In this document: positions 26,303 to 61,170 of the stretch, in pieces | Numbering within the stretch: position 1 is the stretch's first letter | Layout of the letters: each line of letters begins with the position of its first letter | NCBI GenBank assembly: GCA_016188865.1 | Contig: JACPGX010000001.1 | Coordinates: 77,197 to 141,196 of the forward strand | Length of the DNA: 64,000 nt | Reading direction: 5' to 3' | From: Candidatus Nealsonbacteria bacterium | GTDB taxonomy: Bacteria; Patescibacteriota; Minisyncoccia; Minisyncoccales; MHMH01 | The notes under the pieces: model-generated | What the model was told of the DNA's origin: nothing | What the model saw: the letters and a program-made list of their open reading frames with translations, nothing else | Database searches by the model: none | Position numbers and translations under genes: made by a program

Positions 26303-27454
26303 TCAAATCTTAAAATATTTTAACAGGCACTTTTGAAATTTTCCCAAGTTTTTATTTTTAATGCGGAAGCCGGCTGCTTGCGGATGCCCTCCGTATGTTT
26401 CAAGATATTTTGAGCAATAAATCATGGGTTTTACCCCGTCAATACCCTTAGGGGTTCTGACAGCTCCTTGAGAGTCATTTTTTCTCTGGCTATATAAAAA
26501 AGTTGGTTTTTTATAAGTGTTGCATATTCGGGAAGCGGCGGGAGCGGCTATTAAAATAGGCCAATCTTTATCTCCCTCAAAAATAATCGGCTCTTCTATT
26601 TTCTTTAGAGCTCTCTTTTCAACCTCCTCCGTTGCTACTTTAATCCTTTGCTGGCGGATATAAGATTTCTCTGAAAGTTCGACTGCCAAAGATTCTGCTC
26701 CTTCTAACGAAGGCGAAGTTAGAAGAAAATATGCTTCATTAATATGCTCTTTCGTTTCACCGGCATGGCAAGCAGAAATTATCTTTTGCGCCATAGGTCG
26801 AGAACCGTTCTCGCCCTCTTTTGCGAAGACTTGGAGGCCGGGACGGAAGGTACTTTTTAAAGAAGCTAATCCTTCGGTTATAATTTTTATATTATCTTCT
26901 TCCTCTATCATCATATCGGCTATGGTAGCTAAAGCTGCCAGCTCTAAAAAATTACCTCTCAAGGCTGGGGTCATTTTTTTATCCAAAAGAGCTTCGGATA
27001 ATTTAAAAACAACTCCGGCTGCGGCAAATTCCTTGAAAGGATACTTATCTCCTTTTTGTTTCGGATTTACTATAATTTTTGCATCTGGCAGTTTATTTAA
27101 AACCTTATGGTGGTCAACAACCATCACTTCAAAACCAAGTTTTTTGGCTAATTTTATTTCCTTAAAATTTCCTATACCCAAATCTACGGTAATGAATAAA
27201 GCCGGAGAATATTTTTTCAAATAATTTAAAGCGTCTTCATTCACGCCGTAGCCTTCTGTCTCCCTATCCGGAAAATATATTGCCGATACCTTGCCGCCAA
27301 GATTGATAATGGCTTCTTTTAAAATAATAACCGAACTAACGCCGTCCATGTCGGCGTCTCCATAGAGAATAATTCTCTCTTTTTTCTTTATGGCTTTTTT
27401 TATCCTCTCTGCCGCTTTTTTTAGATTTTTGATTTGGGACTTGACAGATTTCAT
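26303..27454 (-). CDS. DHH-family phosphoesterase, RecJ-like (short)
   Basis: GDADMDGVSS, DRETEGYG, VVDHH and GGHPQAAG motifs. Confidence 0.75.
   Translation of the reverse strand: MKSVKSQIKNLKKAAERIKKAIKKKERIILYGDADMDGVSSVIILKEAIINLGGKVSAIYFPDRETEGYGVNEDALNYLKKYSPALFITVDLGIGNFKEIKLAKKLGFEVMVVDHHKVLNKLPDAKIIVNPKQKGDKYPFKEFAAAGVVFKLSEALLDKKMTPALRGNFLELAALATIADMMIEEEDNIKIITEGLASLKSTFRPGLQVFAKEGENGSRPMAQKIISACHAGETKEHINEAYFLLTSPSLEGAESLAVELSEKSYIRQQRIKVATEEVEKRALKKIEEPIIFEGDKDWPILIAAPAASRICNTYKKPTFLYSQRKNDSQGAVRTPKGIDGVKPMIYCSKYLETYGGHPQAAGFRIKNKNLGKFQKCLLKYFKI
26794..26817. repeat. REP family 1 copy inside the RecJ-like CDS
   Basis: ATAGGTCGAGAACCGTTCTCGCCC, translated in frame as EGENGSRPM. 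Confidence 0.8.
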
Positions 27455-27468
27455 AGATATGCTATACT
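27440..27468 (+). promoter_or_regulatory. consensus extended -10 promoter of ncRNA-1
   Basis: CTTGACAGATTTCATAGATATGCTATACT: TTGACA 27441-46, 16-nt spacer, TGc TATACT 27463-68. Identical 29-mer at 28140-28168. Overlaps the first codons of the RecJ-like gene on the other strand. Confidence 0.75.
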
Positions 27469-27474
27469 TATAAT

Positions 27475-27609
27475 TGTTGGGGGCGGGCTAGGTTTATCAG
27501 ACCCGGTCACGAGAAGCGCCTCGCAACGTTAATTTGAGCCGGGGGAGATGCCTTCTCCTACCGGCCGCGAGATTCAAGGTGCAACCCAAACGGGAAGCGC
27601 CTTTTTTTA
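27475..27609 (+). ncRNA. unclassified structured RNA, paralog 1 (~135 nt)
   Basis: No plus-strand CDS follows the promoter. P1 pairs 27476-84 with 27518-27. Hairpin at 27539-64. Conserved ATTCAAGGTGCAAC at 27572-85. T7 run at 27602-08. Confidence 0.6.
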
Positions 27610-27870
27610 TCTATAAATATCTTTTCTGTGACCTATTCCAATTAATTTAATTTTGTCTGGATTTAAAAAATGAAATATCGCCCGCCAGTCACGCGTAATT
27701 CTAAAAGAATAAAAACCAGCCAAGGGGCCGGTAAGTGATTTAGTGCGAAGTTTGGAGTGGAAGGGATTATGCTGAAGAATCTCTAAGAGTTTACTAAGTT
27801 TATTTTGTTGCTCTTTTGGCAGTTTTCCAGAAGATTTTAAAAAAGAATCGGTATAAACAATGGAAATCAT
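27607..27870 (-). CDS. RelE/ParE-family type II toxin
   Basis: 87 aa, with FRITRDWRAIF and a C-terminal GHRKDIY. Starts 4 nt after the upstream small gene. Confidence 0.75.
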   Translation of the reverse strand: MISIVYTDSFLKSSGKLPKEQQNKLSKLLEILQHNPFHSKLRTKSLTGPLAGFYSFRITRDWRAIFHFLNPDKIKLIGIGHRKDIYR

Positions 27871-27873
27871 AAT

Positions 27874-28089
27874 TTATTTTCTTTGAAGTTCGGAAAGAAA
27901 ATGCCTTGCGCCCCTAAAGACGAACCTCTCTTTTTCTCTGGCTGATTTAAGAATTTTTTTAACAAATTCTTGACGGTAGTTTCCTTCTTTATCTTTTCCG
28001 GTTATTCCAATCACAAAAGAACGAAGAAGATTAATTTCTTCCTGCAATTTACTGATACTTATATTTTTATCATTTATAGCAGTAGCCAT
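27874..28089 (-). CDS. putative antitoxin (71 aa)
   Basis: A small gene immediately upstream of the RelE-like toxin with a 3-nt gap. No family recognised. Confidence 0.55.
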   Translation of the reverse strand: MATAINDKNISISKLQEEINLLRSFVIGITGKDKEGNYRQEFVKKILKSAREKERFVFRGARHFLSELQRK

Positions 28090-28139
28090 ATTTTTTTATA
28101 ATATCAAAACTTATAAAGTATGTCAAAATTTCTAAGGAC

Positions 28140-28168
28140 CTTGACAGATTTCATAGATATGCTATACT
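28140..28168 (+). promoter_or_regulatory. consensus extended -10 promoter of ncRNA-2
   Basis: The same 29-mer as 27440-27468: TTGACA 28141-46 and TATACT 28163-68. Confidence 0.75.
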
Positions 28169-28174
28169 ATTAAA

Positions 28175-28375
28175 TGTTGGCGGGTGGCTCGGTATGCTCT
28201 GTTGCCTCCCGGCGGGAACGCTAAATGTCGGCCGACGCGTGTCGCGTATCCGGCTCGGTGGCCTGTTGAGCCAGCCAACGTTTATGAGTCCGAAGGAGGT
28301 CCCATGTGGTTGGTCCTCCTCCGGCGCAAAATTCAAGGTGCAACACACAACTTCGTGTTGCCCTTTTATTTTTAT
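28175..28375 (+). ncRNA. unclassified structured RNA, paralog 2 (~200 nt)
   Basis: P1 pairs 28176-81 and 28185-90 with 28268-79. Hairpin at 28290-324. Conserved ATTCAAGGTGCAAC at 28331-44. Terminator GCAACAC-n8-GTGTTGC plus a T-run, overlapping the pgk stop codon. Confidence 0.6.
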
Positions 28376-29370
28376 TCCAAAACTTTGATGCCCGACAGTT
28401 CTTTACCGCTTAAAAATTCCAGCATGGCGCCTCCGCCGGTGGATAAATAGCTGAACTTATCGCCAAGGCCGAGCTGATTAACGAATTCTACCGTCTCTCC
28501 TCCCCCAATTATAGAATATGCGCCAGAATCAATAATTGCTTTAGCCAATTCTTCCGTTCCGACAGAAAATTCTTTTTCCTCTATTTTACCTAAGGGACCA
28601 TTCCAAAAAACAGTTTTTGCTCGTAAAATTTCTCCTCTGAAAAGTTTGATGGTTTCCGACCCGACGTCTTTGCCGCCGCCCACCTCATCAACTGGGCCGA
28701 TTATTTTTTCCGAATATTTAAATTGAATATTTTTATCTTGAATTTCTTTTTGAATAAGTCCTGAAATTAATACAAAATCAGCCACTTCAGAAATTTTATC
28801 TATAACCATGGATTTCTCTTCCACTTTTTTCCCTCCGATAATCGCCACCAACGGCTTTTCCGGGCTATTGCTTAACTTAGTTAAGCAACGCACTTCTTGT
28901 TCGAGCAAAAGGCCGGCGGCAGAAGGTAAAAATTTTGCAATACCGACGATTGAAGTATGAGCTCGGTGAGATGCGCCGAAAGCATCGTTAATATAAATAT
29001 CTCCTAATTTTGCAAGCTCTTTGGCAAAATTTTCATCGTTTTCTTCTTCCTCTTTATGGAATCTTAAATTTTCCAAAAGAACTAATTCTCCATCTGCGGC
29101 AAATGCCACTTTTTTGTTCAATAATTCTTCCAATCTTTTGGCAACTGGCTTCAAGCTGAATTCTTCCATAGTTTTTCCGTCGGGGCGGCCAAGGTGACTC
29201 ATCAAAATTATTTTTTGGGCTCCTTTTTCTATTAAATACTCAATAGTGGGTATGGTTTTCTTAATTCTAAAGTCATCTAAAATTTCCCCGGTTTCGCTTA
29301 GGGGAACATTGAAATCGCAACGGACCAAAATTCGCTTATTGGCAACATTAAAATCTCTTATGGTGCGCAT
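28372..29370 (-). CDS. pgk: phosphoglycerate kinase (shortened, 332 aa)
   Basis: ILVRCDFNVPL, LLENLRFHKEEE, NDAFGASHRAH, FWNGPLG and STGGGA. Confidence 0.9.
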   Translation of the reverse strand: MRTIRDFNVANKRILVRCDFNVPLSETGEILDDFRIKKTIPTIEYLIEKGAQKIILMSHLGRPDGKTMEEFSLKPVAKRLEELLNKKVAFAADGELVLLENLRFHKEEEENDENFAKELAKLGDIYINDAFGASHRAHTSIVGIAKFLPSAAGLLLEQEVRCLTKLSNSPEKPLVAIIGGKKVEEKSMVIDKISEVADFVLISGLIQKEIQDKNIQFKYSEKIIGPVDEVGGGKDVGSETIKLFRGEILRAKTVFWNGPLGKIEEKEFSVGTEELAKAIIDSGAYSIIGGGETVEFVNQLGLGDKFSYLSTGGGAMLEFLSGKELSGIKVLE

Positions 29371-29378
29371 AATTCGTT

Positions 29379-29420
29379 GAGGTCCGATCTCCCGTCATAT
29401 TTGTCGGGAGGTCGGACCTC
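29379..29420. repeat. REP family 2 hairpin (GAGGTCCGA...)
   Basis: GAGGTCCGATCTCCCG (29379-94) pairs with CGGGAGGTCGGACCTC (29405-20), with one T/G mismatch. Confidence 0.8.
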
Positions 29421-29429
29421 CTAATATCG

Positions 29430-31205: not shown

Positions 31206-31214
31206 AAATATAAT

Positions 31215-32564: not shown

Positions 32565-32583
32565 TTATATATTATATCCTATT

Positions 32584-33540: not shown

Positions 33541-33551
33541 TACATTGACAT

Positions 33552-34430: not shown

Positions 34431-34440
34431 CTGATTTTAA

Positions 34441-34482
34441 GAGGTCCGACCTCCTCTCAAATTTGAGTGGAGGTCGGACCTC
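34441..34482. repeat. REP family 2 hairpin
   Basis: GAGGTCCGACCTCC-T-CTCAAA|TTTGAG-T-GGAGGTCGGACCTC is a 42-nt palindrome. Confidence 0.85.
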
Positions 34483-34488
34483 CAAATA

Positions 34489-37710: not shown

Positions 37711-38181
37711 TTAAACTTGGACAAACTTTGCCGGGAGAGTGGCAGTGGCAGAGTAAACGTGAATACCTTCACCCCAATCTTCCACGGCGAAACTATAGCC
37801 ATCTTCTGCCTTATAAACAGAATAGATGACTTCCAGCTCCTCCATTCCCCTATTGGTGGCGCTGATCATCTTGGCCTTCTGCCGGTATTCGCTGGGGAAA
37901 ATTTTGGTGCCAAGAATGGGGTCCTTCATAAAACGAGGGTGGCCCTTCAGTCTTGCGGCCAACTTCCTCTCGTGCTCTGCCTCAGACCAGAGCACGAGAT
38001 TGCCTCCCTCGATTTCCAAGGCAAACTCTGCTCCATGAGCGTGAAATACCAGGCATCTCCATCGCTCGCCGTCTTTCTCATAGACGGCCACCTCGTCAAC
38101 AAGATGAGTGGAACCCATAACTGTTATGCTGTCGCCCGGCTCTACTTCTTCCAGCGCCCTCAAAAGCTCCCTCTTTCTCAT
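37711..38181 (-). CDS. hypothetical 156-aa protein on a GC-rich single-gene island
   Basis: GAGGAGG ribosome-binding site, its own perfect promoter and a downstream hairpin. GC is about 50% against ~35% in the flanks. Confidence 0.55.
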   Translation of the reverse strand: MRKRELLRALEEVEPGDSITVMGSTHLVDEVAVYEKDGERWRCLVFHAHGAEFALEIEGGNLVLWSEAEHERKLAARLKGHPRFMKDPILGTKIFPSEYRQKAKMISATNRGMEELEVIYSVYKAEDGYSFAVEDWGEGIHVYSATATLPAKFVQV

Positions 38182-38787: not shown

Positions 38788-39120
38788 TTAAATCGCTGTT
38801 TCTAATGGATAGATGTCCATAGCGATTTCTTCGTAAGGATGAACTTTTTTTATCGCCCTTAAAACTTTTTTCAATTTGCTCCTCTCGCATCTGGCCTCTA
38901 TTCTTTCTTCGAAAACCTGTTCCAATTTACCCGCCCTGCCGATTGCCGGCTTGGCTCCTTTTTTGGGCAGAAACCTGCCCTTTCCTTTGGCCGAAAAACT
39001 ACAAAATGAATAGTTCCCTATTTTCCCGGCTCCAGCTTTTCCCAGCGCCTTTCTCACCGCATCAGCATGCGTCTCAGGCGTAAATACTACAATTTTTACA
39101 AATTTATATTTATTTTCCAT
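38788..39120 (-). CDS. NIF3-insert/YqfO-C-terminal-like small protein (COG3323-type)
   Basis: FVKIVVFTPETHADAVRKAL..AGAGKIGNY..C.F and HPYEEIAMDIYPL. I prefer the ATG at 39120, because the longer track ORF overlaps secA by about 125 nt. Confidence 0.55.
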   Translation of the reverse strand: MENKYKFVKIVVFTPETHADAVRKALGKAGAGKIGNYSFCSFSAKGKGRFLPKKGAKPAIGRAGKLEQVFEERIEARCERSKLKKVLRAIKKVHPYEEIAMDIYPLETAI

Positions 39121-41470
39121 GACACCTTTTATATTTTTTCCCTGAACCGCACGGACAAGGGTCGTTTCTGCCCGCCTTTTGACTGTTGGACTTACGAAAT
39201 CCAACGGTACCGTTGGATTTCGTAAGTCCAACATCTTGCGGCTTAAGAGAAACTCGTAAAATTGTTTCGGCTATATTGGATTCAATGGTATCCAATAATG
39301 TTTTAAACATTCTGTGACCTTCGGTTTTGTATTCAACTAAGGGATCGCGTTGGCCGTAAGCCCGAAGGCGGACGGAATCGCGCAAGGCCTCCATCTCTTC
39401 CAAATGATTCATCCAAAGCATATCTAATGTCCTCAAAGCGACTATTTTAGCGACTTGATTAAAATTTTCGCCTAATTCTTTTACTTTTTCTTCGCAACCT
39501 TTAAGTTTTTCTTTCCAATCTTCTACTCGAAGAAACTCTTTTCTTTTTTTATAAATAACTTCTCGGTGTTTATTCAAAACATCGTCGTAATCCAAAAGGT
39601 GTTTTCTTAAATCAAAATTCAGACCTTCAATTTTTGACTGGGCCGATTCTATAGCGCCGGAAATCATACCCGCCTCAATGGGCTGATCTTCAGGGATTTT
39701 TAAAACATTCATCAATGATTTTATTTTCTCTCCCCCGAAAATCCGCATAACATCATCTTCTAGAGAAATGAAAAACTGGGAAGAACCCGGGTCTCCCTGC
39801 CTGCCCGATCTGCCGCGAAGCTGATTATCAATGCGCCTTGCTTCATGGCGCTCGGTGCCAATAACATGAAGGCCTCCCGATTCTCTGACCATTCGACTTC
39901 GCTCGGGGTTATCTTCGGGGTTGCCTCCGAGTATAATATCCACTCCTCGGCCTGCCATATTTGTGGCAATAGTTACGGCCCCTAATTTTCCTGCTTGAGC
40001 GATAATTTCTCCTTCTTTTTCATGATTTTTAGCATTCAAAATCTGGTGAGATACTCCTTCTATGTTTAAAAGCTTTCCCAAGTATTCATTTTTTTCAATC
40101 GAAGTAGTGCCCACCAAAACCGGCTGGCCATTTTCGTGCCTTTCTTTTATTGCTCTGACTACTGCCTTAAACTTTCCTTCTTCTGTTTTGTAAATTCTGT
40201 CGGGCAATTCTTTTCTAATCATCGGCTTATTGGTAGGAACTGCGATAAGATCCAGGTTATAAACTTTATCAAATTCTTCAGCCGAAGTAGCGGCAGTGCC
40301 GGTCATGCCAGCCAATTTCTTATACATCCTGAAATAATTCTGAAAAGTAATAGAGGCTAAGGTTAAAGATTCCGGCTGAACCGCAACCCCCTCTTTCGCC
40401 TCGACTGCCTGATGCAGCCCGCCCGACCATCGACGACCGGGCATTAGTCTGCCCGTAAACTCGTCAACAATAATCACCTCTCCGCTCTGGACCACGTAAT
40501 CCCTGTCCTTTTTGAACATCACTTCCGCCCTTAGGGCCTGCTCCAAATGATGAACGTATTTTATGCCTTTTTCTTCATATATATTTTCTTGACCCAAAAT
40601 CTTTTCTATCTTGCCAATCCCTTGCTCGGTTAAAGTAACTGCTTTCATTTTCTCGTCAATCTCGTAATCAGTTTTAGAATCTAATTTAGGAATAATTTTA
40701 GAAAATTCCTGATACCATTTTGATGATTCCGTGTCGGGAGCCGAAATTATCAACGGAGTTCTGGCCTCATCGATTAAAATAGAATCAACCTCGTCAACGA
40801 TTGCATAATTAAACCCGCGCTGGACCTGCTGATTTAAATCATAAGCCATATTGTCTCTTAAATAATCAAACCCGAACTCGTTATTGGTGCCGTAAGTAAT
40901 ATCAGCCGCATATGCATCTTTCCTGGAGCATGGCCTCAAATAATCATCAATAACTTTGAATCCGCCAAGCGCATCTCTTTCTTTGTCCTTATTGGAGTCA
41001 GGGTCATACACATATGAAGCATCATGGATGATACAGCCCGTTGATAATCCTAATGCATGATAAATTTGTCCCATCCAGACAGCGTCTCTTTTAGCTAAAT
41101 AATCGTTAACGGTAACAACATGTACTCCCTCGCCTCCCAGGGCATTCAAATAAATAGGCAAAGTTGCTGTTAGAGTTTTCCCTTCTCCAGTTTTCATTTC
41201 AGCAATCTTGCCTTCGTGCAAAACCATTCCGCCAATTAACTGCACATCAAAATGCCGCTGATTGAGCGTTCTTTTTGCCGCCTCCCTTACAAGCGCAAAC
41301 GCCCTCTCTAAGTTAATCGCTTGACGAAGTTTATCGGTCTCCCCTTTAAGCTGCTCAGCGGAAAAACCTTCAAATTCTTTTTCGAAGCTGTTTATCCTAT
41401 CAACCGCCGGCTGAAGTTTTTTCACATATTTTTCATTGGCATCGCCAAAAATTTTATTTAAAATTGGCAT
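39110..41470 (-). CDS. secA: preprotein translocase ATPase SecA
   Basis: DEAD-like motor motifs and a C-terminal zinc finger CPCGSGKKYKRCHG. Confidence 0.95.
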   Translation of the reverse strand: MPILNKIFGDANEKYVKKLQPAVDRINSFEKEFEGFSAEQLKGETDKLRQAINLERAFALVREAAKRTLNQRHFDVQLIGGMVLHEGKIAEMKTGEGKTLTATLPIYLNALGGEGVHVVTVNDYLAKRDAVWMGQIYHALGLSTGCIIHDASYVYDPDSNKDKERDALGGFKVIDDYLRPCSRKDAYAADITYGTNNEFGFDYLRDNMAYDLNQQVQRGFNYAIVDEVDSILIDEARTPLIISAPDTESSKWYQEFSKIIPKLDSKTDYEIDEKMKAVTLTEQGIGKIEKILGQENIYEEKGIKYVHHLEQALRAEVMFKKDRDYVVQSGEVIIVDEFTGRLMPGRRWSGGLHQAVEAKEGVAVQPESLTLASITFQNYFRMYKKLAGMTGTAATSAEEFDKVYNLDLIAVPTNKPMIRKELPDRIYKTEEGKFKAVVRAIKERHENGQPVLVGTTSIEKNEYLGKLLNIEGVSHQILNAKNHEKEGEIIAQAGKLGAVTIATNMAGRGVDIILGGNPEDNPERSRMVRESGGLHVIGTERHEARRIDNQLRGRSGRQGDPGSSQFFISLEDDVMRIFGGEKIKSLMNVLKIPEDQPIEAGMISGAIESAQSKIEGLNFDLRKHLLDYDDVLNKHREVIYKKRKEFLRVEDWKEKLKGCEEKVKELGENFNQVAKIVALRTLDMLWMNHLEEMEALRDSVRLRAYGQRDPLVEYKTEGHRMFKTLLDTIESNIAETILRVSLKPQDVGLTKSNGTVGFRKSNSQKAGRNDPCPCGSGKKYKRCHGK

Positions 41471-45032: not shown

Positions 45033-45047
45033 GGAGGTCGGACCTCC
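45033..45047. repeat. REP family 2 core palindrome
   Basis: GGAGGTCGGACCTCC with partially palindromic flanks. Confidence 0.7.
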
Positions 45048-46788: not shown

Positions 46789-47676
46789 TCAAGATAAAAT
46801 TTGAATTTCTTCCTCAATTTCAATTCTGAATTTATTTTTAACTTCTTTTTTTACCAGATCAATTAATTTTAAAACATCTTTTGCTTTAGCCCCGCCAAGA
46901 TTAACAATAAAATTAGCATGCTGTTCGGAAATCTGCGCCTTGCCTATTATTTTCCCCTTAAGACTGGCTTTTTCAATTAAATCGCGGGCTCTTGCGTTTT
47001 CTAAATTTTTAAAGATACTGCCAGCCGAAGAATACTTAGGATGACTGCTTCTCCTGTAATTCAAAATTTCTTTTACTTTATTTTTAATTTCCTCTTTATC
47101 GCCTTTTTTAAATTCCAATTCCGCAGAAAGAATTATTAAATTAGAATTTTTCTTAAAAATACTATCTCTGTAGCCAAACTGGCAGTCTTCATTATTGAAT
47201 TTTCGAATTTCGAATTTCGAATTTCGAATTTCCAAAACTGTTACAGTTTTGGTGATATCTTTCATTTCTGTCCCAAAGGCTCCGGCATTTCCCCTAATCG
47301 CCCCTCCCACTGTTGCTCCCGGAATGCCAGTAGCCCACTCCATGCCCGAAAGACTAGCGTTAGCAGTAGCACTCACTAATTTAGCCAAAGTTACCCCGGC
47401 GCCAGCGATTACTTTGCAAATTTTTCCTGCCTGCCGGCGGGCAGAAATTTTTAATTTACAATTTTCAATTTTTATAACTAACCCATTATAGCCATTGTCA
47501 GAAACCAACAAATTGCTTCCACCGCCTAAAATAAAAAAGGTGGTTTTGTTTTTTTGGGCAAAATTGATTGCCTTAATTAAATCTTCTTTACTTTTCGCAA
47601 TACAAAAATATTCAGCCGGCCCACCAATTCGAAAAGTTGTGTAGTTTTTCAGCAAAACATTCTTCTGAATTTTCAT
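46789..47676 (-). CDS. murB: UDP-N-acetylenolpyruvoylglucosamine reductase
   Basis: TTFRIGGPA, GGGSNLL, GIPGATVGGAIRGNAGA and YRDS. Confidence 0.9.
   Translation of the reverse strand: MKIQKNVLLKNYTTFRIGGPAEYFCIAKSKEDLIKAINFAQKNKTTFFILGGGSNLLVSDNGYNGLVIKIENCKLKISARRQAGKICKVIAGAGVTLAKLVSATANASLSGMEWATGIPGATVGGAIRGNAGAFGTEMKDITKTVTVLEIRNSKFEIRKFNNEDCQFGYRDSIFKKNSNLIILSAELEFKKGDKEEIKNKVKEILNYRRSSHPKYSSAGSIFKNLENARARDLIEKASLKGKIIGKAQISEQHANFIVNLGGAKAKDVLKLIDLVKKEVKNKFRIEIEEEIQILS
47197..47232. repeat. heptanucleotide tandem repeat inside murB
   Basis: Four perfect CGAATTT units (47204-47231) plus one 8-nt variant. 36 nt in total, translated as EIRNSKFEIRKF. Confidence 0.9.
47426..47444. repeat. 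GC-rich palindrome family 3 copy inside murB
   Basis: CCTGCCTGCCGGCGGGCAG shares GCCGGCAGGCAGG (minus strand) with 60630-60649. Translated as SARRQAG. Confidence 0.7.
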
Positions 47677-52935: not shown

Positions 52936-54206
52936 TAACAAATTACCTTAAAAATAAAATATACAGGTTTTTACGCCTGGCTCAAAAATACACAGGCACG
53001 GACAATGTTTATTTGGCTAAAGGAGGATTTTGGCTGTCTTCGAGCCAAATTTTTTCAATGGCCATTGCTTTTTTTTCGGCCGTGGCCTTTGCCAACTTGC
53101 TAAACCCGGCAACATATGGAAACTATAAATATATTTTATCTCTGGCAGAAATTTTGGAAATTACGTCTTTAGCGGGAGTGGGGGCCGCCGTAACTCAAGC
53201 CGTAGCCCGCAATTTGGAAGGTTCTTTTTATTCGGGCTTCAAAACCAAATTAAAATGGGGGCTTATTGGAAGCCTAGCGGCCATGATAGCTGTTATTTAT
53301 TATTGGTTAAGAGGCAATGAGACCCTATCTTTACCGCTTATTGTTGCGGCTGTTTTTCTGCCGATTTTAAACGCCTCGCATATTTACACTGCTTTTTTAG
53401 GTGGAAGAAAATTATTTAATTACCAAGTCAAATACACGATCGTCAGCCAAATTATTTCAGTGGGAGCGATCATTGCCGCTCTTTTCCTAACCAAAAACCT
53501 TTTATGGCTGATTATCGTGTATTTTACCTCAAACTCTTTCACAAACTTTTTTTTCTACTTCTTGACCAAGTTTAAATTCCGGCCAAATAAAAAAGAAGAT
53601 CCCCAAACCATCTCTTACGGCAAACATTTAAGCTTAATGGGAGTCGTTTCTGGGATAGCCAGTCGTTTGGACAAACTGCTTCTTTTTAATTCAATCGGAG
53701 CCGCTCCGTTGGCAATTTATTCTTTTGCCACAATTATTCCGGAGCAGATTGAAAGAATTTTGGGAAATGTTGAATCCCTCGCTTTCCCCAAATTAGCTTC
53801 AAAATCAGAAAAATATATCAGGGTGAATCTAATGCAAAAATTTTGGAAACTATCCATTCTAACGGGCATGGCTATGGTTGTTTCTATCGCAATTATCCCG
53901 TTTTTTTATAAAATATTTTTCCCGCGATATCTTGATTCCATAATCTATTCTCAGGCATTCGTGCTCACTTTTGTTTCCATTCCAATAAGCTTGTTGGGCA
54001 CGACTTTCAAGGCCAAGATGATGAAAAAAGAACTTTACTTAATTAAAGTGGGCTCTTTTATCAAAATATGCCTCATGGCAATATTGATTCCCATTTACGG
54101 TATCTGGGGAGCTATAGTGGCCGCCATTGGAGCTGAAATTTTCAAAAGCGGATTGGTCTTGTTTTTATTTTTCAGAAAATTTAAAGATGGGCCTGCCTCC
54201 TTCTGA
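52932..54206 (+). CDS. Wzx-like polysaccharide flippase (MOP superfamily)
   Basis: About 12 TM helices. ATGA overlap with the sugar transferase gene. Confidence 0.65.
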   Translation: MITNYLKNKIYRFLRLAQKYTGTDNVYLAKGGFWLSSSQIFSMAIAFFSAVAFANLLNPATYGNYKYILSLAEILEITSLAGVGAAVTQAVARNLEGSFYSGFKTKLKWGLIGSLAAMIAVIYYWLRGNETLSLPLIVAAVFLPILNASHIYTAFLGGRKLFNYQVKYTIVSQIISVGAIIAALFLTKNLLWLIIVYFTSNSFTNFFFYFLTKFKFRPNKKEDPQTISYGKHLSLMGVVSGIASRLDKLLLFNSIGAAPLAIYSFATIIPEQIERILGNVESLAFPKLASKSEKYIRVNLMQKFWKLSILTGMAMVVSIAIIPFFYKIFFPRYLDSIIYSQAFVLTFVSIPISLLGTTFKAKMMKKELYLIKVGSFIKICLMAILIPIYGIWGAIVAAIGAEIFKSGLVLFLFFRKFKDGPASF

Positions 54207-54917
54207 TTTGCCAACAAACTCAACTTTCTTAAAGCAGGAGTTTTGAATTATAAAATCAACGAATTGCTCCGGAGTGTAATTTTTATAAAAAATTTTACCG
54301 CCGAATTCACGGGGTAAATGCGGTTCAAAAAATAATTCTTTGGCCTCAAGGCGCTTTAAAAAAATGATCAAATTAAAATAAGCTTCTTTACTTTTTAAAA
54401 AATGATGGAAGACGCTTAAAGCCAATACTACATCAAAAACCAACTTTTCATTTTTTTTATAATTAAAAATTGACTGCGGAATCACTTTAAAGCTTTTATT
54501 AGCCGCTTTTTTTAATTTTTCTATAAAATAACTCAACATTCTATTTTCCTCCAAAGCGCAACAATCGAACCCCTCATCCTCAAATTTATGGCAGAAATAT
54601 CCCAAATTGGCTCCAATATCCAATAAGGTCCCTTTTCTTGCGGTAAGATTTTCCTTAATTATCTTAAAACGATCATCGCTATTTCTTAAAAAGGGAACGT
54701 CTTCGAAGCCGCGACCCGCGAAAGACTGATAGGGTCGGTCTTTTCCGTAAAAAAGAAGAAGCTCTTTTTTGAGCTGGTTTTCGCCAGACATGAAATAGGC
54801 CCTTAATTGCAAAATATTTTTTTCTATCTCAAATTTAATGCCATCGAAAACTTTCCAGATAATCGCCAGATGCATATCAAAAATAATTTTTTTGACAGCG
54901 ATAACAACCATTGTCAT
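54165..54917 (-). CDS. class I SAM-dependent methyltransferase
   Basis: Motif I LLDIGANLGYF. Confidence 0.65.
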   Translation of the reverse strand: MTMVVIAVKKIIFDMHLAIIWKVFDGIKFEIEKNILQLRAYFMSGENQLKKELLLFYGKDRPYQSFAGRGFEDVPFLRNSDDRFKIIKENLTARKGTLLDIGANLGYFCHKFEDEGFDCCALEENRMLSYFIEKLKKAANKSFKVIPQSIFNYKKNEKLVFDVVLALSVFHHFLKSKEAYFNLIIFLKRLEAKELFFEPHLPREFGGKIFYKNYTPEQFVDFIIQNSCFKKVEFVGKSEGGRPIFKFSEK

Positions 54918-56431
54918 ATAATAATTTCTTTTATAACTTTGCCGTCCATATCTTCCGGAATCGACACATTAAACATAGATAGAATGGTAGGAGTTAGATC
55001 TAGAACGTTCAATTCTCCGATATCGCCTGCGTTTTTTATGTTAGGACCGAAGGCAAGAAAAATACCTTCTCTTATTATCATGTGGCCGCCGCGAGCAACT
55101 TTCGCTACCCGCGTTATCGATCTTTTTCTAGTAAGGGAAAAGGGCAAAAAACCGGTCGGCAAAAATTTGCTGTTTGGCAAATAGGCAATGTCCGGAAATT
55201 TTTCTACGCCCTCGCCGCTGAATATCTCTTCTCTCTTCCAAACATATTTAATGATTTTTTCGCCATTTTTGTCTTTCAACTCTCTCATTTTTTTCATTAT
55301 TTCCGACCTCACTTCTTCGTAATCTCTTTTTAAATTCTCTTTGAATATCTTAATCCCCCAAAAATCGTGATTGCTTGCCACGGTTTTTGACCAATCAACC
55401 CCCATTGCCTTTGACTCGGAAGAATGCTTTTTAAGACGCCAGCTTCGATCAATCTTAAAGGGCTGGTTTACTTCTTTTTTATTTTTTTTATTAATTATGC
55501 TTTTAATGCTGTCCAATAAGTAATAGAGAAATCCGAGATAGCGATACCTGTAAGCTCCGGGTATTTTTATTAAAAAATTATTTATTGCCTGCACTATCCA
55601 CTGTTGGATTATATTGCCTTTCAACTTCAAGTAGCCTTCTTTTTTCAGCCATGATTTTGGATAAAACTCGTAAATCGGCACTGCGTCAAAGCCGTGGTCG
55701 CTCATAATAATGATATTCGCATCGGGATTATTTTCCATAACATCATTAAGGTTTTTATCTATTTCCTTAAAAAATCTTGAAAGATATTCTTCCTCCCCCC
55801 AAAAATCATGTTGTATGGCATCCGATTCGTCTACCCAAAATAGAACAAAATCAAAGGCGGCATCCTTAATGACGTTCCTAATGATTTGGTATTTTTGTTT
55901 AGCGCTTTCAAGAAAAAAGTTGAACAACTCTTTTTCGCCTTCCATTGTCTTTTCGCCCGAAATTAATTTCAGAAATGTCTCTCTACCCAGATGGAATCCC
56001 CTCACTCTCTCTTTAAATTCTTTAGGATAAGTATATTCATCTTTTTCTGAAACAGAAAAGCCGGAAAGCATAACTCCCTCAACTGGAGTAGGCGGATGGG
56101 TGGTCGGCAAATTTAAAATGGCTGATTTAAGGCCGTAATTTCCTAAAATCTCCCAGATAGCCGGATTATTGATTCTTATTTTGTCGTATCTTGTCACATC
56201 GCAATCAAAACATGAAAAATCAAGACTCCCCCATTTCGCGGGATTTTTTCCCGTATAAAAAGAAATTATTGCAGTGCTGCTTCTGCAGGGAATAGAACTC
56301 ATCAGAGTGCCATGGGATCCCTTATCCAATATTTTTTTAAACGCAGGCAAAAGCCCTTTTTCTGCCAAAGGCTTTAATGATATCCATGTGCCTCCATCTA
56401 TGCCAAAAACTATTGTTTTATGTTTTTCCAT
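54914..56431 (-). CDS. alkaline-phosphatase-superfamily enzyme (type I phosphodiesterase/nucleotide pyrophosphatase-like), soluble
   Basis: N-terminal FGIDGGTW metal site region and SDHGF. Confidence 0.6.
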   Translation of the reverse strand: MEKHKTIVFGIDGGTWISLKPLAEKGLLPAFKKILDKGSHGTLMSSIPCRSSTAIISFYTGKNPAKWGSLDFSCFDCDVTRYDKIRINNPAIWEILGNYGLKSAILNLPTTHPPTPVEGVMLSGFSVSEKDEYTYPKEFKERVRGFHLGRETFLKLISGEKTMEGEKELFNFFLESAKQKYQIIRNVIKDAAFDFVLFWVDESDAIQHDFWGEEEYLSRFFKEIDKNLNDVMENNPDANIIIMSDHGFDAVPIYEFYPKSWLKKEGYLKLKGNIIQQWIVQAINNFLIKIPGAYRYRYLGFLYYLLDSIKSIINKKNKKEVNQPFKIDRSWRLKKHSSESKAMGVDWSKTVASNHDFWGIKIFKENLKRDYEEVRSEIMKKMRELKDKNGEKIIKYVWKREEIFSGEGVEKFPDIAYLPNSKFLPTGFLPFSLTRKRSITRVAKVARGGHMIIREGIFLAFGPNIKNAGDIGELNVLDLTPTILSMFNVSIPEDMDGKVIKEIII

Positions 56432-58085
56432 ATTTTAACGATTCTTCAACTGCCCATTTCGCTCCATTTTTGCGGGGGTCTCCAAAGAAGCGTTCCTGCA
56501 GCTGCTTTAAATATTCTTTTGAAATCTCACGGCTCTTTTTTATGCAATTTATTAATTCTATAGGATTTTCAGCAAAAAAACAATTGCGCTTCTCGAGGGA
56601 TTTTATGTCAAAATAATCTCCCCATTTTTTAGTCCTAAAAAAAATAAAAGGCTTCAACTGCAATAACGACTCAAGAACAGCTGTGCTGTGAGAACCGACA
56701 GCCATATCTGATTGCGAAATGGCCTCTTCCATAGTGCCGTGGAAATTTTTTATTTTCTCTGTAATTTTTTTATAGACCTCGGGGCGATTATCCTTCAGCC
56801 ACAACTCAAAAGCGTCTTTATAGGGACGGAATTTAATATGCATATCAAATTCTTTTATTTCCAAAAGCGTTGAAAGATAGGGCATAACTTCTTCGGGGGC
56901 TGCCAATCCCTCCGAGATAAAAAGCACCTTCAGGCGACCCTTTGAGGTCGAACCTCTCGCGAAAGGGAGAGGTTCGACCTCTCCAACTCCTTTCGTCAGC
57001 GGACGCATGGGGCCGGAAACATAAAATTGTTCCGGTTTATAGGCGTTGCTATTTCTGATGTAATAATCCAGCCACCAATCGGACCAAAGGCCGTATTTAT
57101 CAACCGAAAGATAATTTTTACTGTTAAATCCCGGCATAAAATCGGAAATAAGATAGTATTTGGAAGCAGCTCCGTGCTGTATGCCGACCGTTTTTATCCC
57201 AGTCATTTTGCAGGCTATAACTTCGTGGAAACTACGGTTGCTGGCAGTCGGCACTATGGCTGATTTCGCCCCTACCCATTGCCAGATGAATTTCATCACT
57301 TCAATGGACCAAACTGTCCCCCTGATATTGCGAAGATAATGAGTGGCAACCAAAAACCAAAATTTCTCATTCGGATTTCCGGCTGACTGAAATCTTTTTT
57401 CACCGAAGAAACCGGCTAAATAATGCACAAATCCAACGATTGCCGTAGAATAAATCACCGGCCTTCTTCTTCGCCAAGCATGCTTTAAAATTATTCTCCA
57501 TGATTCCAGGCTTCTGATAAATTCAACAAAATTAATCTTTCTTTGCCTCAATTCCTGGTAAATAAATTTGTATCTGAAATCAAAATCATCCTGCCCGCTG
57601 AATCTGTCGCTAGTTTCAAGCAATAATTTTGGTCGGGCTATTTTCAACCAAAATAAAAATATGAAAGAAAGGAAAAGCTGAAGCAATATACCGAAAGGAG
57701 GCAAAAATATCCTCTTTTTATAAATTAGACAACGGCAACTTTGAGTTTCTAAAAAATAGCGGAAGAGAGATGAAAAAGGCGGACGATAAAGATGAACCTC
57801 TCCAAAATTTTTTAGGTAATCAAGTAAATCGCGATATTGAGTATAGGGCAAACAAAACTGATAATAAATATCGTCATGATGAATCCACCACAGTTCATAT
57901 CCCTTATAAACGATGCTTGGCCTGGGAAGCCGGCAAAATAGCTGATAGGCCTCCTGAACGCTGCCCGGAGTTATGAAATCATCTAATTTTGGGAAACTCA
58001 ATACTTCATCAAATTGTTCAAACCAGGATTTCTTCTTTTTGGGGTAATTTTTCCCGAAAATCACTAGGATAGATTTATTTTTCAT
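56418..58085 (-). CDS. hypothetical protein, possibly a GT-B-like glycosyl/glycerophospho-transferase
   Basis: Central TM-like segments and a C-terminal Rossmann-like half. Operon context only. Confidence 0.35.
   Translation of the reverse strand: MKNKSILVIFGKNYPKKKKSWFEQFDEVLSFPKLDDFITPGSVQEAYQLFCRLPRPSIVYKGYELWWIHHDDIYYQFCLPYTQYRDLLDYLKNFGEVHLYRPPFSSLFRYFLETQSCRCLIYKKRIFLPPFGILLQLFLSFIFLFWLKIARPKLLLETSDRFSGQDDFDFRYKFIYQELRQRKINFVEFIRSLESWRIILKHAWRRRRPVIYSTAIVGFVHYLAGFFGEKRFQSAGNPNEKFWFLVATHYLRNIRGTVWSIEVMKFIWQWVGAKSAIVPTASNRSFHEVIACKMTGIKTVGIQHGAASKYYLISDFMPGFNSKNYLSVDKYGLWSDWWLDYYIRNSNAYKPEQFYVSGPMRPLTKGVGEVEPLPFARGSTSKGRLKVLFISEGLAAPEEVMPYLSTLLEIKEFDMHIKFRPYKDAFELWLKDNRPEVYKKITEKIKNFHGTMEEAISQSDMAVGSHSTAVLESLLQLKPFIFFRTKKWGDYFDIKSLEKRNCFFAENPIELINCIKKSREISKEYLKQLQERFFGDPRKNGAKWAVEESLKYGKT
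56944..56981. repeat. perfect 15-bp hairpin (REP family 2-like) inside a CDS
   Basis: GAGGTCGAACCTCTC-GCGAAAGG-GAGAGGTTCGACCTC, translated in frame as EVEPLPFARGSTS. Confidence 0.85.
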
Positions 58086-59659
58086 GCCAATTGTTTTTCT
58101 AATTCATCCCAATTGATGACTGATGCGGCTTTTTGGAATTGATCGCCGGAAAAGTAAACCTTTTGATAGATTTCTTTAAGTTTAGTGAAAATTTTTTGCC
58201 CCTCCGGGGTGGATTTTTCTGCCTTTTCAATATGCGGCCACCATTTTTTGGGAAAGCCGACATACATAGCAAAAGTTTTCATTAGGCCATCGATCGCTTC
58301 TCTGCTTAATTGGGGCATATTTAAAAGAGAGGAAGCGGTAGTGTGGGTGGTCATCGCCTCTGGGTCAAGGTATCCTTTTTGGATAGCTTCCTCCCTTAAT
58401 TTGCTGCCATGATATGGAGTAAAAATGCTGACAGTCAAACTGTCGTAACCTGATAATTGACGATTGAAATCAATGGTTTCGAAAATCAGCTCTCTGGTTT
58501 CGTCCGGAAACCCAATCATATTATTGATGCTGAAGGGAATTCTGCTTTTCTTAAGAATTTCCATGCTCCTCAAAATTTCTTCGTTGGAACCAAAACGTTT
58601 CAGTTTGTTCTTCCTGAATTCTTCGTTACCGCACTCTACGCCAATAGACATTCTGTAGCAGTTCATTTTTTTTAATAAATCAGCTTTTTCTTCGGTAATC
58701 GTTTCCGGCCTTGTATTCATCCAAAAAGGTATGTTGAATTCCTGATATTTTTCGGCAAATTCTTTAAGTTCCTCCATGGGTCTGGCTAAAAATGTGTCAT
58801 CGATAATATAAAGCAGTTCCGGACTGTATTCTCTGACAAAATATCTTATTTCCTCCATTAATCTGCCGATGCTTTTTCTTCTTAAAAAAATTTCTCCTTT
58901 GCTATCGCGGTAAACTTTGCTCCACATCGGCGAATCGCAAAAAGTGCACTGATACGGGCAGCCTCGAGCTGTTTCCAACGGCACGGTTTTTAAAATTTTA
59001 CCGCCCATTGGCCGATAAAAACGAACTTTTTCAAATAAACTAAAATCCGGCATAAATTCATTAATATCTACTAAAGAAGCTATGGGATTTTTAATAATTG
59101 CGCCGTCTTCTTTTTTAACCCAAGTATTGAGAACATTCTGAATATCTTCGTAACGTTCGCCGTTCCTCATCCTCTGGGCCAGCTCAAGCGCCGTTTTTTC
59201 GCCCTCCCCCCAGCCAATCATTTTAATTTGGGGGTAAGAAATGGCCTTTTCCGGAGCAGCTGTAATAAAAACGCCGCCGACAATATGCGGTATATTCTTT
59301 TCTTTAATTGCGTTCAGCAATCTGATGCCCTGCAAAAAAGCATCCTCCAGCGCGGAAACTAGCAATAAATCCGGCTTAAAAGATTCGACTTTTTTTACAA
59401 AACTTCCAATAAGGTCTTTTCTCATTTCGAAACCAAGATCTTTTGCGTAAGAAAACTTACGGGCCTGCAAATATTCCACTCTTTTTAACGGAGAAATAGG
59501 AGCATTCTCTTCGTACAAAGTAGCGTCAAACAAATCGAGTTCAAAGCCTTCATTTTTGAGAATGGATGTAAAAAGGCCTATGGCGCCGGGCAAAACAAGC
59601 ATGCCCGGTATGTTCGGATAAACCAAAAGTATTTTAAACTTTTTATTGTTTTCTTCCAT
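58082..59659 (-). CDS. B12-binding-domain radical SAM enzyme, paralog B
   Basis: N-terminal Rossmann/B12-like domain and the CPYQCTFC cluster. Confidence 0.8.
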   Translation of the reverse strand: MEENNKKFKILLVYPNIPGMLVLPGAIGLFTSILKNEGFELDLFDATLYEENAPISPLKRVEYLQARKFSYAKDLGFEMRKDLIGSFVKKVESFKPDLLLVSALEDAFLQGIRLLNAIKEKNIPHIVGGVFITAAPEKAISYPQIKMIGWGEGEKTALELAQRMRNGERYEDIQNVLNTWVKKEDGAIIKNPIASLVDINEFMPDFSLFEKVRFYRPMGGKILKTVPLETARGCPYQCTFCDSPMWSKVYRDSKGEIFLRRKSIGRLMEEIRYFVREYSPELLYIIDDTFLARPMEELKEFAEKYQEFNIPFWMNTRPETITEEKADLLKKMNCYRMSIGVECGNEEFRKNKLKRFGSNEEILRSMEILKKSRIPFSINNMIGFPDETRELIFETIDFNRQLSGYDSLTVSIFTPYHGSKLREEAIQKGYLDPEAMTTHTTASSLLNMPQLSREAIDGLMKTFAMYVGFPKKWWPHIEKAEKSTPEGQKIFTKLKEIYQKVYFSGDQFQKAASVINWDELEKQLA

Positions 59660-59667
59660 AATTACTT

Positions 59668-61170
59668 TTAAAAATATTTTTCCCGATAAATCTTTTTATA
59701 TTCTTCAAAAATCCCGTTGCCTTCTTCATCAAATTTTTCGGCAATTTTTATCCTTGGCCATTCTGATTTCGGGAACCTGATATAAAGAGAAAATGTTCTT
59801 TGAAGGCCTTTTAATTCTTCGTAGCTTATTGAGGCCATTTTTAATCTAACGCCATCTGTAACGTTATGGACTTTAGCATTCTCGTCAAGGTATCCTTTCT
59901 CAAGGCAGTATTCTCGCAAAGGCGTACCCCTGTAAGGAACAAACATGCTGCAGTTAATGGTCCGGGGATTCAATTGGCGGTTCAGCTCAATGGTGTCAAA
60001 AATCAAGTCTCTCGTTTCTTCTGGAAACCCGATAATATTATTGGCGGTATAAGGAATTTGGTATTTTTCAACCAGCCTGATGCCGCGCACTATTTGTTCG
60101 TTTGAACCGTAGCGATGCAAAACTCTGCCCCTAAATTCTTCATTGCCATGCTCAATGCCAAAATTCATGGAATCTACGCCCATTTCTTTTAAAATTTCTA
60201 GCTTTTGTTCGGTAATGGTTTCCGGCCTTGTTTGCGCCCAAAATGGCAAATGAATCCTCTTTTTATATTCTCCGGCAAACTCTTTTAATTCTTCTATGGG
60301 TTTTGCCAGAAATGTTTCTGAATTAAAATTGATATAATCCGGCCGGTATTTTTTTGCCAAATATTCAAGTTCCGCCATTACCCGGGGAATTTTTTTTCTC
60401 CTATAATAAGAGCCGCATCCTTCTTTTATGAAAAAATTGCTTAAAACCGGGGCTGCGCAGTAAGCGCATTGATTGGGACAACCCCTGTCTATTTCAACGT
60501 GAATCATTGTGTAAATTTTACCGAACATCGGTCTGCCAAGGCGTTCTCTGCCCCAAATTTCGTAATCAATATACGGCAAAGCATCGATATTCTGCAGCCC
60601 TCTTAAGGGATTTTTGACAATTTTACCGCCCTGCCTGCCGGCAGGCAGGTCTTTTTTAATCCAAATGTTCTTAATATTGGAATAATCTTCGCCTCTTTCA
60701 ATTTTTTGGCAAAGTTCAATCAAGGTTTCTTCTCCCTCGCCAAGGCAAACCATATCAATATCTGGATGAGAAATAATTTCCTCCGGGGCGGCTGTCACTA
60801 ACACGCCGCCGGCAATAACCGGAATATCAAAATCTTTTGCAACGCTCAGCAAAGATTTGGCTAATTCCCAAGTATCCTCTACGAGAGTAAAACCTATTAA
60901 ATCAGGCTGAAATTTAGAAATCTTTTTTCTTAAATCGTCGTAAATATTATTTTTTTTCAGTTCCAATCCTTTATCGATCAAATTAAAGGGTTTTATTTGC
61001 AGTAATTCCACTCTTTTTTGTTCAGAACTAACTTCCTCGGTTTTATAAAAAGTGGTGTCAAATAAATCAACTTCAAAGCCTTTTTCTTTCAGACAAGCAG
61101 AAAGTTGAGATAAGTTAATCGGCACCAAAGTCGAAGCCATGGTATTGGGATAAATAAATAATACTTTCAT
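59668..61170 (-). CDS. B12-binding-domain radical SAM enzyme, paralog A
   Basis: CPNQCAYC cluster. Collinear with paralog B. Confidence 0.8.
   Translation of the reverse strand: MKVLFIYPNTMASTLVPINLSQLSACLKEKGFEVDLFDTTFYKTEEVSSEQKRVELLQIKPFNLIDKGLELKKNNIYDDLRKKISKFQPDLIGFTLVEDTWELAKSLLSVAKDFDIPVIAGGVLVTAAPEEIISHPDIDMVCLGEGEETLIELCQKIERGEDYSNIKNIWIKKDLPAGRQGGKIVKNPLRGLQNIDALPYIDYEIWGRERLGRPMFGKIYTMIHVEIDRGCPNQCAYCAAPVLSNFFIKEGCGSYYRRKKIPRVMAELEYLAKKYRPDYINFNSETFLAKPIEELKEFAGEYKKRIHLPFWAQTRPETITEQKLEILKEMGVDSMNFGIEHGNEEFRGRVLHRYGSNEQIVRGIRLVEKYQIPYTANNIIGFPEETRDLIFDTIELNRQLNPRTINCSMFVPYRGTPLREYCLEKGYLDENAKVHNVTDGVRLKMASISYEELKGLQRTFSLYIRFPKSEWPRIKIAEKFDEEGNGIFEEYKKIYREKYF
60630..60649. repeat. 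perfect 20-nt GC-rich palindrome (family 3) inside radical SAM paralog A
   Basis: CCTGCCTGCCGGCAGGCAGG, translated as LPAGRQG. This segment is absent from paralog B. Confidence 0.9.

Follow-up and report, generated by a model that had tools for sequence, protein, structure and literature searches.

How palindromic repeats come to lie inside protein-coding genes whose reading frames remain open is the question raised by a 64,000-nucleotide (nt) stretch of a groundwater metagenome-assembled genome (MAG) of Candidatus Nealsonbacteria, a member of the Candidate Phyla Radiation (CPR/Patescibacteria). The stretch (positions 77,197 to 141,196 of contig JACPGX010000001.1, assembly GCA_016188865.1; about 39% G+C) is referred to as the window, and positions are counted within it. 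A sequence-only reading had listed six repeat copies inside open reading frames (ORFs) here; all six are in place, and every listed ORF reads through its copy with the peptide quoted; some of the host genes are essential ones. The repeats concerned are a GC-rich 21-nt palindromic element, P, in a radical SAM gene and in murB; a perfect hairpin in the gene of a 555-aa protein; and copies of a repetitive extragenic palindromic (REP) repeat, family 1 (REP1), in a RecJ-like gene, in an IS200-like Y1 transposase gene resembling the REP-associated tyrosine transposases (RAYT-like), and at the 3′-end of rdgB. Below, L001 and similar labels denote related DNA loci and P0242 and similar labels homologous proteins, while plain P always denotes the 21-nt element.

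The reading that we favour, at a probability of about 0.78, is that this genome hosts several families of short, selfish, hairpin-forming repeats of REP type, and that their intragenic survivors sit in tolerant loops and linkers, in frame and translated. The repeat matches in the window are far beyond chance. Against shuffled sequence, the REP family 1 core occurs at five loci with at most three mismatches (0.00 expected) and the 20-mer palindrome of P occurs twice (0.00 expected), while the unit of a second family, GGAGGTCGGACCTCC, is found at five sites compared with 0.02 expected.

Element P in a radical SAM gene and in murB

For P, filled and empty sites can be compared directly. The features concerned are:

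60629..60649: element P, a perfect 20-nt palindrome CCTGCCTGCCGGCAGGCAGG plus one G (coding strand), encoding LPAGRQG
59668..61170, minus strand: B12-binding radical SAM paralog A, host of P (PF02310 and PF04055)
58082..59659, minus strand: B12-binding radical SAM paralog B, without P (Pfam match and sequence)
47425..47445: decayed copy of P in murB, two mismatches, encoding SARRQAG
46789..47676, minus strand: murB, host of the decayed copy (PF01565 and PF02873)

Among 120 radical SAM homologs, LPAGRQG is found only in the window protein, the other 119 being without the insert. Relatives at 87–89% identity read KKD-GK where the window protein reads KKD[LPAGRQG]GK, and the corresponding DNA is AAA GAC [CTG CCT GCC GGC AGG CAG GGC] GGT AAA in the window and AAA GAC GGC AAG in ortholog L001. 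Comparison with paralog B had previously suggested a clean insertion of six codons. The insertion is indeed clean, but both the L001 DNA and the homolog alignment give its size as seven codons (21 nt), the lower count having arisen because paralog B happens to have one extra residue. Judged from these alignments, the GC-rich palindrome is a genuine insertion, in frame and specific to its lineage.

The murB copy had been described as carrying one mismatch, which holds for the 19 nt then quoted; over the full 20 nt there are two. The insert is shared by four MurB relatives. Of the MurB proteins compared, P0242, P0243 and P0246 read PACRQAG from a perfect palindrome, whereas P0244 and P0245 (70–72% identity) have exactly seven codons missing at the site, and some relatives without P stand closer to the window protein than the P-bearing ones do. 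A second MurB clade (loci such as L068) carries a 21-nt variant, encoding PACPAGR, in almost the same loop, and its sister protein P0292 is without it. The L001 methyltransferase-like ortholog of the window gene at 54165-54917 reads TCLPAGR, which the window gene lacks. The four independent cases of presence and absence all measure 21 nt and together cover all three frames. The lineage-specific insertions expected from ortholog alignment are borne out for P in both radical SAM paralog A and murB. Whether the P-bearing MurB alleles form a single clade was also considered, but the neighbour-joining tree was too poorly resolved to tell.

Mapping the inserts onto structures, as had been proposed, agrees with the alignments. 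The AlphaFold2 models of the radical SAM protein and MurB have a mean predicted local distance difference test (pLDDT) score of 92 and 94, respectively. Residues 175-180 of the former, the insert, form the sole segment to fall below a pLDDT of 50, flanked by strands 169-173 and 183-186; the MurB insert occupies loop 78-85, between strands 75-77 and 86-92, which is the least confident part of that model. Both inserts are therefore predicted to fall at beta-hairpin turns, where models that are confident elsewhere have low confidence, and solved MurB structures show an alignment gap at the insert position. The earlier suggestion of a mechanism that tolerates insertions is matched by P itself: its 21 nt make seven codons and are free of stops in all six frames, and the residues that it encodes (LPAGRQG, PACRQAG or CLPAGR) are small or polar.

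Besides having received P twice, the MurB loop holds unrelated longer insertions in other lineages. Those seen in homologs P0278, P0291, P0309, P0322, P0341, P0310 and P0358 (for example VEFCDSRTKRKKKTKSSSH, TEPRRVGARVKMKTKFSSP and GFGGQ) look like products of other repeat families.

Hairpins in the 555-aa, RecJ-like and Y1 genes

Two further intragenic repeats differ from P in how they relate to their orthologs:

56944..56981: perfect hairpin with a 15-bp stem and an 8-nt loop, two inverted family-2-like units (GAGGTCGAACCTC), encoding EVEPLPFARGSTS
56418..58085, minus strand: 555-aa protein of unknown family, host of the hairpin (no Pfam match; syntenic with the L001 and L002 orthologs)
26793..26820: REP family 1 copy in the RecJ-like gene, one mismatch to the 19-nt core, encoding EGENGSRPM
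26303..27454, minus strand: DHH/DHHA1 family phosphoesterase (RecJ-like), host of the REP1 copy (PF01368 and PF02272)

Ortholog loci of the 555-aa gene were gathered through synteny and a metagenome scan. The hairpin falls in a hypervariable linker, with the conserved motifs MRPL and KVLF on either side. The L001 ortholog (73% identity) carries GAGGTCGCACCTCTC-GG-GAGAGGTGCGACCTC there, again a perfect 15-bp stem, which differs from that of the window by one compensatory pair (a double change from A:T to C:G) and encloses a loop of 2 rather than 8 nt. Most orthologs are without the hairpin, including L005 and L006, which are as close as L001. In a clade at about 45% identity, this linker contains another doublet, AAGGTCGGACCTT-13 nt-AAGGTCCGACCTT, with a core and architecture that match the intergenic family 2 doublets of the window. 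On these alignments the linker is a permissive site under recurrent colonisation, hit twice independently. The hairpin is thus lineage-specific and placed in a variable linker, as had been claimed, but the net length change is small and the description as a clean insertion does not hold.

The RecJ-like copy is old and adds a single codon. The residues E/D-N-G-S-R are common to about 20 orthologs (at least 70% identity), in a loop of equal length, and five orthologs (72–81% identity) retain the palindrome core GAGAACGGTTCTCG in their DNA; the copy in L193 matches the family 1 consensus at 25 of 27 nt. The outgroup L230 reads AAA GAT AAT ATT CGT CAA, has no palindrome and is one codon shorter than L193. 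Lineage-specificity, as first proposed, fails for the residues and applies to the palindrome at the DNA level, which is absent from the outgroup. The palindromes in the orthologs and the shorter outgroup loop mark it as an old overwrite of a variable loop rather than a clean insertion. At identical residues, codons are also identical in 53/65 comparisons within the core, compared with 2098/4105 in the rest of the gene. All six RecJ-like sequences retain GAG-AAC-GGT-TCT-CGN, a run of rare codons (GAG 30%, AAC 20%, GGT 14%, CGN 6–11% each), when only 24 of the 198 fully conserved residue columns of the gene show one codon across all six. The first pair outside the core varies (T:A, G:C, A:T). 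By these patterns the copy, once in place, has been maintained as a nucleotide sequence, whether through selection or through homogenisation.

Such patterns raise the possibility that some intragenic hairpins, chiefly these two, are selected nucleic-acid elements of which the peptide is a by-product. Such a hairpin might be bound or cleaved by Y1 or another protein, or might act within the mRNA on stability, pausing or domain-wise folding. The rare codons retained in RecJ, its varying outer stem pair and the survival of the 15-bp stem in L001 through both the paired change and the shortened loop are consistent with such selection, as is the stability of the 555-aa hairpin (predicted at -40 kcal/mol for a 90-nt segment). 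The comparison comprises just six RecJ-like DNA sequences and two hairpin-bearing 555-aa lineages, however, and the pattern would be no different under gene conversion from other REP copies; moreover, the hairpin is missing from most 555-aa orthologs and from the RecJ outgroup, so the structure is not needed for either gene to work. We regard this explanation as possible but somewhat doubtful, and it can coexist with a selfish origin.

The remaining family 1 copies are found around the Y1 gene and rdgB:

10146..10868, minus strand: IS200-like Y1 (RAYT-like) transposase gene (PF01797; HUH motif HVHLL)
10669..10698: REP1 copy inside the Y1 gene, exact 19-nt core, encoding VNRSRTVLDS
10093..10144: downstream inverted arm of the Y1 gene, with a REP1 copy (10119-10137) and a 16-bp stem
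10869..10920: upstream inverted arm of the Y1 gene, with a REP1 copy (10876-10894) in inverted orientation
9328..9356: intergenic REP1 variant GGCGAGAACCGTTCTCGCC, 14-bp stem
6742..6790: inverted doublet of short REP1 cores, one (6778-6790) over the last rdgB codons (REPFS) and one (6742-6757) intergenic

The Y1 ORF (250 aa) is open to 10898, while homolog alignments begin at query residues 11-14. The gene probably starts at the 11th codon of the ORF (nt 10868), which places the REP copy at 10876-10894 upstream of the gene and not inside it. The two arms are 81% complementary over 52 nt, and inverted REP1 arms around a Y1 gene are, by sequence, the typical REPtron layout. The copy inside the gene is read through in frame, as claimed, and sits in a linker whose length varies among homologs, from about 20 to about 80 residues; its status as an insertion cannot be shown because the closest homolog is only 51% identical. 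The same applies in part to rdgB, which encodes a Ham1/RdgB pyrophosphatase. Its C-terminal read-through is confirmed, but the Ham1 domain and the alignment with E. coli RdgB stop at residue 191-192 of 205, and in place of a demonstrable insertion there is a REP doublet overlapping the 3′-end of the gene, by its position an ordinary REP placement.

These cases bear on the proposal that the palindromes are ordinary coding sequence, alike by chance or convergence and with no insertion involved. Orthologs sharing the encoded residues would point that way, and the ENGSR residues are shared among close RecJ-like orthologs at the peptide level, yet those orthologs carry the palindrome DNA as well; the RAYT-like and rdgB copies, not being demonstrable as insertions, are also compatible with it. 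The findings on P and on the 555-aa hairpin already contradict this proposal, which also has to contend with the expectation of 0.00 matches in shuffled sequence, with the 119 of 120 radical SAM homologs that are without P, and with the interruption of unrelated genes by the same 20-mer in all three frames. We consider it very improbable.

Under the favoured explanation of selfish repeats in tolerant sites, family 1 would be the partner of the Y1 gene that it brackets and P a free-standing 21-nt palindrome. New copies would land, or be copied, anywhere in the genome, and those that break genes would be lost. Surviving intragenic copies would be those in beta-hairpin turns and hypervariable interdomain linkers, where extra flexible residues are tolerated, and the copies that persist would preserve the frame and be translated, with Y1 or other nucleases as putative mobilising enzymes and selection as the filter. 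P would be pre-adapted to this filter by its seven codons, by being stop-free in all frames and by its small or polar residues. The strong filtering invoked earlier fits the window: most copies are intergenic, and when the window was scanned for perfect stems of 8 bp or more, the GC-rich hairpins proved mostly intergenic, though about 85% of the window is coding. The peptides that would span insert-encoded residues of the window proteins are KKDLPAGRQGGK, ISARRQAGK, GEVEPLPFARGSTSK and EGENGSRPM.

Several points weigh against this explanation. No transposase is associated with P, and the translation of the inserts is inferred from frame preservation. Six of the seven copies or half-copies of family 1 in the 64 kb lie less than 4 kb from the Y1 gene, so that the dispersal of this family depends on the RecJ copy. 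That copy, with synonymous sites conserved in rare codons, is not neutral passenger DNA, and with little net length change it is poorly described by simple insertion. The small net length changes in the 555-aa linker likewise do not fit a simple insertion. The compensatory pair there and the synonymous conservation in RecJ both suggest that the hairpin itself is under selection or has been homogenised repeatedly.

Other repeats in the window complete the census, two of them intragenic cases (in SecA and the DUF4178 gene) that had previously gone unlisted:

29378..29421: intergenic family 2 doublet (GAGGTCCGATCTCC ... GGAGGTCGGACCTCC)
34440..34483: intergenic family 2 doublet
45033..45047: single family 2 unit, intergenic
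39184..39233: perfect 50-nt palindrome inside SecA (39110-41470, minus strand), read in frame, located in the C-terminal linker and immediately ahead of the SEC-C zinc motif
37968-37999: GC-rich hairpin in a DUF4178 gene (37711-38181, minus strand), 12-bp stem and 8-nt loop

In family 2, AGGTCSGACCT units are paired into doublets placed downstream of genes. Each arm of the SecA palindrome is itself a small hairpin, and the ORF at 38788-39234 that overlaps it is probably spurious. A third family of intergenic hairpin doublets was observed at 4628-4661 and 5447-5480 (units AACACCCGGTGTT and AACCTCCGAGGTT, 13-bp stems, 8-nt loops). Separately, a 54-nt direct repeat occurs at 27440-27493 and 28140-28193 and carries a good TTGACA...TATACT promoter-like core; each copy is followed by a GC-rich stretch without a convincing ORF or an Rfam match, possibly an unannotated small RNA. 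A ParE/RelE-like toxin ORF (27607-28089, minus strand) adjoins a DUF2683 ORF and the two resemble a toxin-antitoxin pair. An Rfam scan of the window matched rRNAs and nothing else. Introns are common in CPR rRNA genes, and the 23S rRNA gene (14765-19210, minus strand) measures 4446 nt against a 2925-nt model and holds two LAGLIDADG endonuclease ORFs (15270-15866 and 16659-17141, both minus strand; PF03161 and PF00961, respectively). From the two ORFs and the excess length, this gene probably contains two introns.

Element P across phyla and in phages

A search for exact P, with one genome per species, returned at least 120 stretches among the matches listed, compared with our estimate of about 1–6 matches by chance. 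The species that carry it number at least about 115 and the phyla at least about ten, and phages have it as well. The P-bearing taxa among the matches listed include many CPR classes, Bacteroidota (with seven cultured isolates among them), Omnitrophota, Planctomycetota, Gammaproteobacteria, Bdellovibrionales, Thermodesulfovibrionales, Chloroflexi, Elusimicrobia, Verrucomicrobia and others, and the loci are mostly AT-rich. In viral contigs P was found in 35 stretches, with six copies on one 29.5-kb contig, while two composition-matched control palindromes gave 0 matches in the same viral collection. The flanks of P are not conserved and show a mild excess of both inverted and direct similarity. 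As a target motif or target-site duplication, nothing was found beyond this flank similarity and a depletion of T at position -1.

The window and most of the related loci come from metagenome assemblies, in which chimeric reads can yield perfect palindromes, and assembly or sequencing artefacts (hairpin chimeras or adapter remnants) therefore had to be considered. The murB copy is present in independent assemblies from different samples and has decayed by two mismatches in the window; flanks are contiguous and in frame on both sides; P occurs in cultured Bacteroidota isolates on contigs of 0.2–1 Mb; and the control palindromes found no matches where P found 35. An artefact is scarcely credible on this evidence.

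Only about 12% of 123 P copies lie in long ORFs, in keeping with filtering. Hosts in other phyla include the genes for FtsK, GatB, RmlB, a PMT-family glycosyltransferase and HsdS, and solved homologs show alignment gaps at the P positions in the RmlB, GatB, FtsK and PMT genes. The LPAGRQ frame is used in 9 of about 13 cases in real genes. This preference suggests selection on the peptide, which argues against the idea that inserts are removed before or during translation, intron-like or by ribosome bypass, leaving proteins unaltered. Very stable hairpins in ORFs could promote bypass, and P also lies in tRNA-gene loops, where its fate at the RNA level would matter; the inserts, however, are only 21–50 nt long and lack ribozyme or intein features, and gene-internal copies with a known empty site are all stop-free multiples of three, which would be needless if they were removed. 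Removal is highly unlikely in our view, and an intron or intein is ruled out on size.

An all-against-all BLAST of ORFs within 600 nt of P revealed no recurrent neighbour except a small group encoding GIY-YIG domains. Ten GIY-YIG ORFs were found in 1.27 Mb of P-containing loci, five of them with exact P 20–41 nt upstream, a sixth with a degenerate P and a seventh with a different GC-rich palindrome at the same position. There is no GIY-YIG gene near about 95% of P copies, nor is there one in the window, and a search that started from GIY-YIG genes, in viral contigs only, returned two loci. The usual layout is a duplicated 5′ fragment of a tRNA gene that carries the palindrome, followed by the GIY-YIG ORF and then by the intact tRNA gene.

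Small GIY-YIG ORFs (PF01541) inside tRNA genes were observed in L107 (2127-2480), L226 (515-900), L188 (5880-6160), L176 (3709-4061), L147 (2760-3200) and L109 (880-1200), where the D-loop or anticodon stem of the upstream tRNA fragment contains either P or a different GC-rich palindrome. L226 also shows structured-looking sequence after the second tRNA copy (about 900-1000), in the anticodon loop, possibly a group I intron. In the type I restriction specificity (HsdS) gene of L130 (2790-4892), an in-frame GIY-YIG domain comes 41 nt after P and separates the two target-recognition halves, the 20-nt P shifting the frame and fusing the upstream HsdS half to the GIY-YIG reading frame. L163 has a GIY-YIG ORF (4821-5021) within the 23S rRNA gene of a Saccharibacteria MAG. 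Among viral contigs, L219 carries P (2284-2303) in the variable loop of a phage tRNA-Met, which is still called as a 92-nt tRNA, and the related phage L196 has P (8616-8635) together with a 13-nt deletion in the T-arm.

A general restoration of tRNAs by loss of P was considered and rejected. Removal of 20–22 nt in silico gave a spanning tRNA call in only two of about 160 loci: the tRNA-Met of L219, for which ARAGORN gives a call even when P is present, and an oddly long 86-nt tRNA-Val in L100. Other tRNA-like contexts of P proved to be duplicated 5′ fragments and not interrupted genes.

For one 20-mer to be present in phages and in no fewer than about ten phyla, whatever mobilises it would have to be widespread too. 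Tentatively, P may be an undescribed cross-phylum 21-nt mini-element that enters genes, tRNA loops, intergenic hairpins and phages, and its spread could be tied to tRNA-inserting GIY-YIG genes, as a trans-mobilised partner, a landing pad or a cleavage-site insert. If true, this would be a partnership like that of REP and RAYT but built on a different nuclease, and the association of GIY-YIG ORFs with P at tRNA genes makes the question of mobilisation testable. The sequence of P was not found in the searchable literature, and we know of no shorter element of this kind.

Comparison with known repeat systems

Palindromic repeats in frame within genes are known from the Rickettsia palindromic elements (RPEs; Ogata et al., 2000; PMC10969869, PMC3733652). 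As summarised there, RPEs resemble the elements studied here in being in-frame palindromes in unrelated housekeeping genes, absent from orthologs and at fold-compatible sites, in an AT-rich, reduced host genome. Each of these traits has a counterpart in the window. The repeats are in frame inside otherwise intact conserved genes; they are absent from orthologs in the case of P and the 555-aa hairpin, and for RecJ only relative to the outgroup; and they occupy loops in the radical SAM protein (175-180) and MurB (78-85), the 555-aa and RAYT-like copies lying in variable-length linkers. RPEs measure about 100–150 bp and are confined to Rickettsia, whereas the elements here are of 21–50 nt, in unrelated sequence families and a different phylum, and membership of an RPE family is ruled out by size, sequence and phylum. 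P, moreover, is common to several phyla and phages. With the present repeats, the range of selfish DNA within protein genes, previously Rickettsia and a few proteobacteria, would come to include the Candidate Phyla Radiation. CPR proteins commonly contain short insertions that lack an explanation, and the repeats provide a concrete source of them, the MurB and 555-aa loops having been colonised repeatedly. For annotation, LPAGRQG, PACRQAG and EVEPL...RGSTS mark repeat-derived insertions and not protein families.

Family 1 resembles a REPtron in its 20–30-nt palindrome, in the inverted copies that bracket a Y1 HUH gene and in its placement mostly downstream of genes. Intragenic REPs of the GTAG and CGTC superfamilies are known, and genes for replication and repair contain many of them (Di Nocera et al., 2013; PMC3733652), with which the copy in the RecJ-like gene agrees. 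Assignment to these superfamilies was rejected because the family 1 consensus TAGGTCGAGAACCGTTCTCGACCTA has neither tag, and P was likewise rejected on sequence. Unlike known REPtrons, this one has a CPR host and a family 1 copy inside the transposase gene itself, its RecJ copy is conserved over genus-level divergence, and P is without a Y1 partner nearby. The conservation of the RecJ copy through synonymous sites suggests that some intragenic repeats have gained a function. A transposable element of the miniature inverted-repeat type (MITE), with terminal inverted repeats, target-site duplication and a length of 70–300 bp, was also rejected, in that P adds exactly 21 nt with no duplication at the four sites for which an empty state is available and all elements are of at most 50 nt.

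The GC clusters of yeast mitochondria are mobile GC-rich hairpin elements. GC-rich hairpins in AT-rich organelle genomes have also been described as repetitive hairpin-forming elements in sponges (PMC2800124) and as palindromic repeats in Fusarium (PMC7218506). Like P, such organelle elements are small, GC-rich, without coding capacity of their own, and scattered over AT-rich genomes, also inside genes and structural RNA genes; they are lineage-specific, whereas P is bacterial and viral and identical across phyla. The closest parallel to the P-linked ORFs is SegB of phage T4, a free-standing GIY-YIG homing endonuclease in a tRNA gene region (PMC2330249). Both are small GIY-YIG proteins encoded next to or inside tRNA genes, but SegB has no associated palindromic repeat, and the link between P and GIY-YIG genes seen here is a statistical association only. 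In-frame and intragenic palindromic repeats as such were thus known already; the surprise lies in the identity of P across phyla and in its association with GIY-YIG genes.

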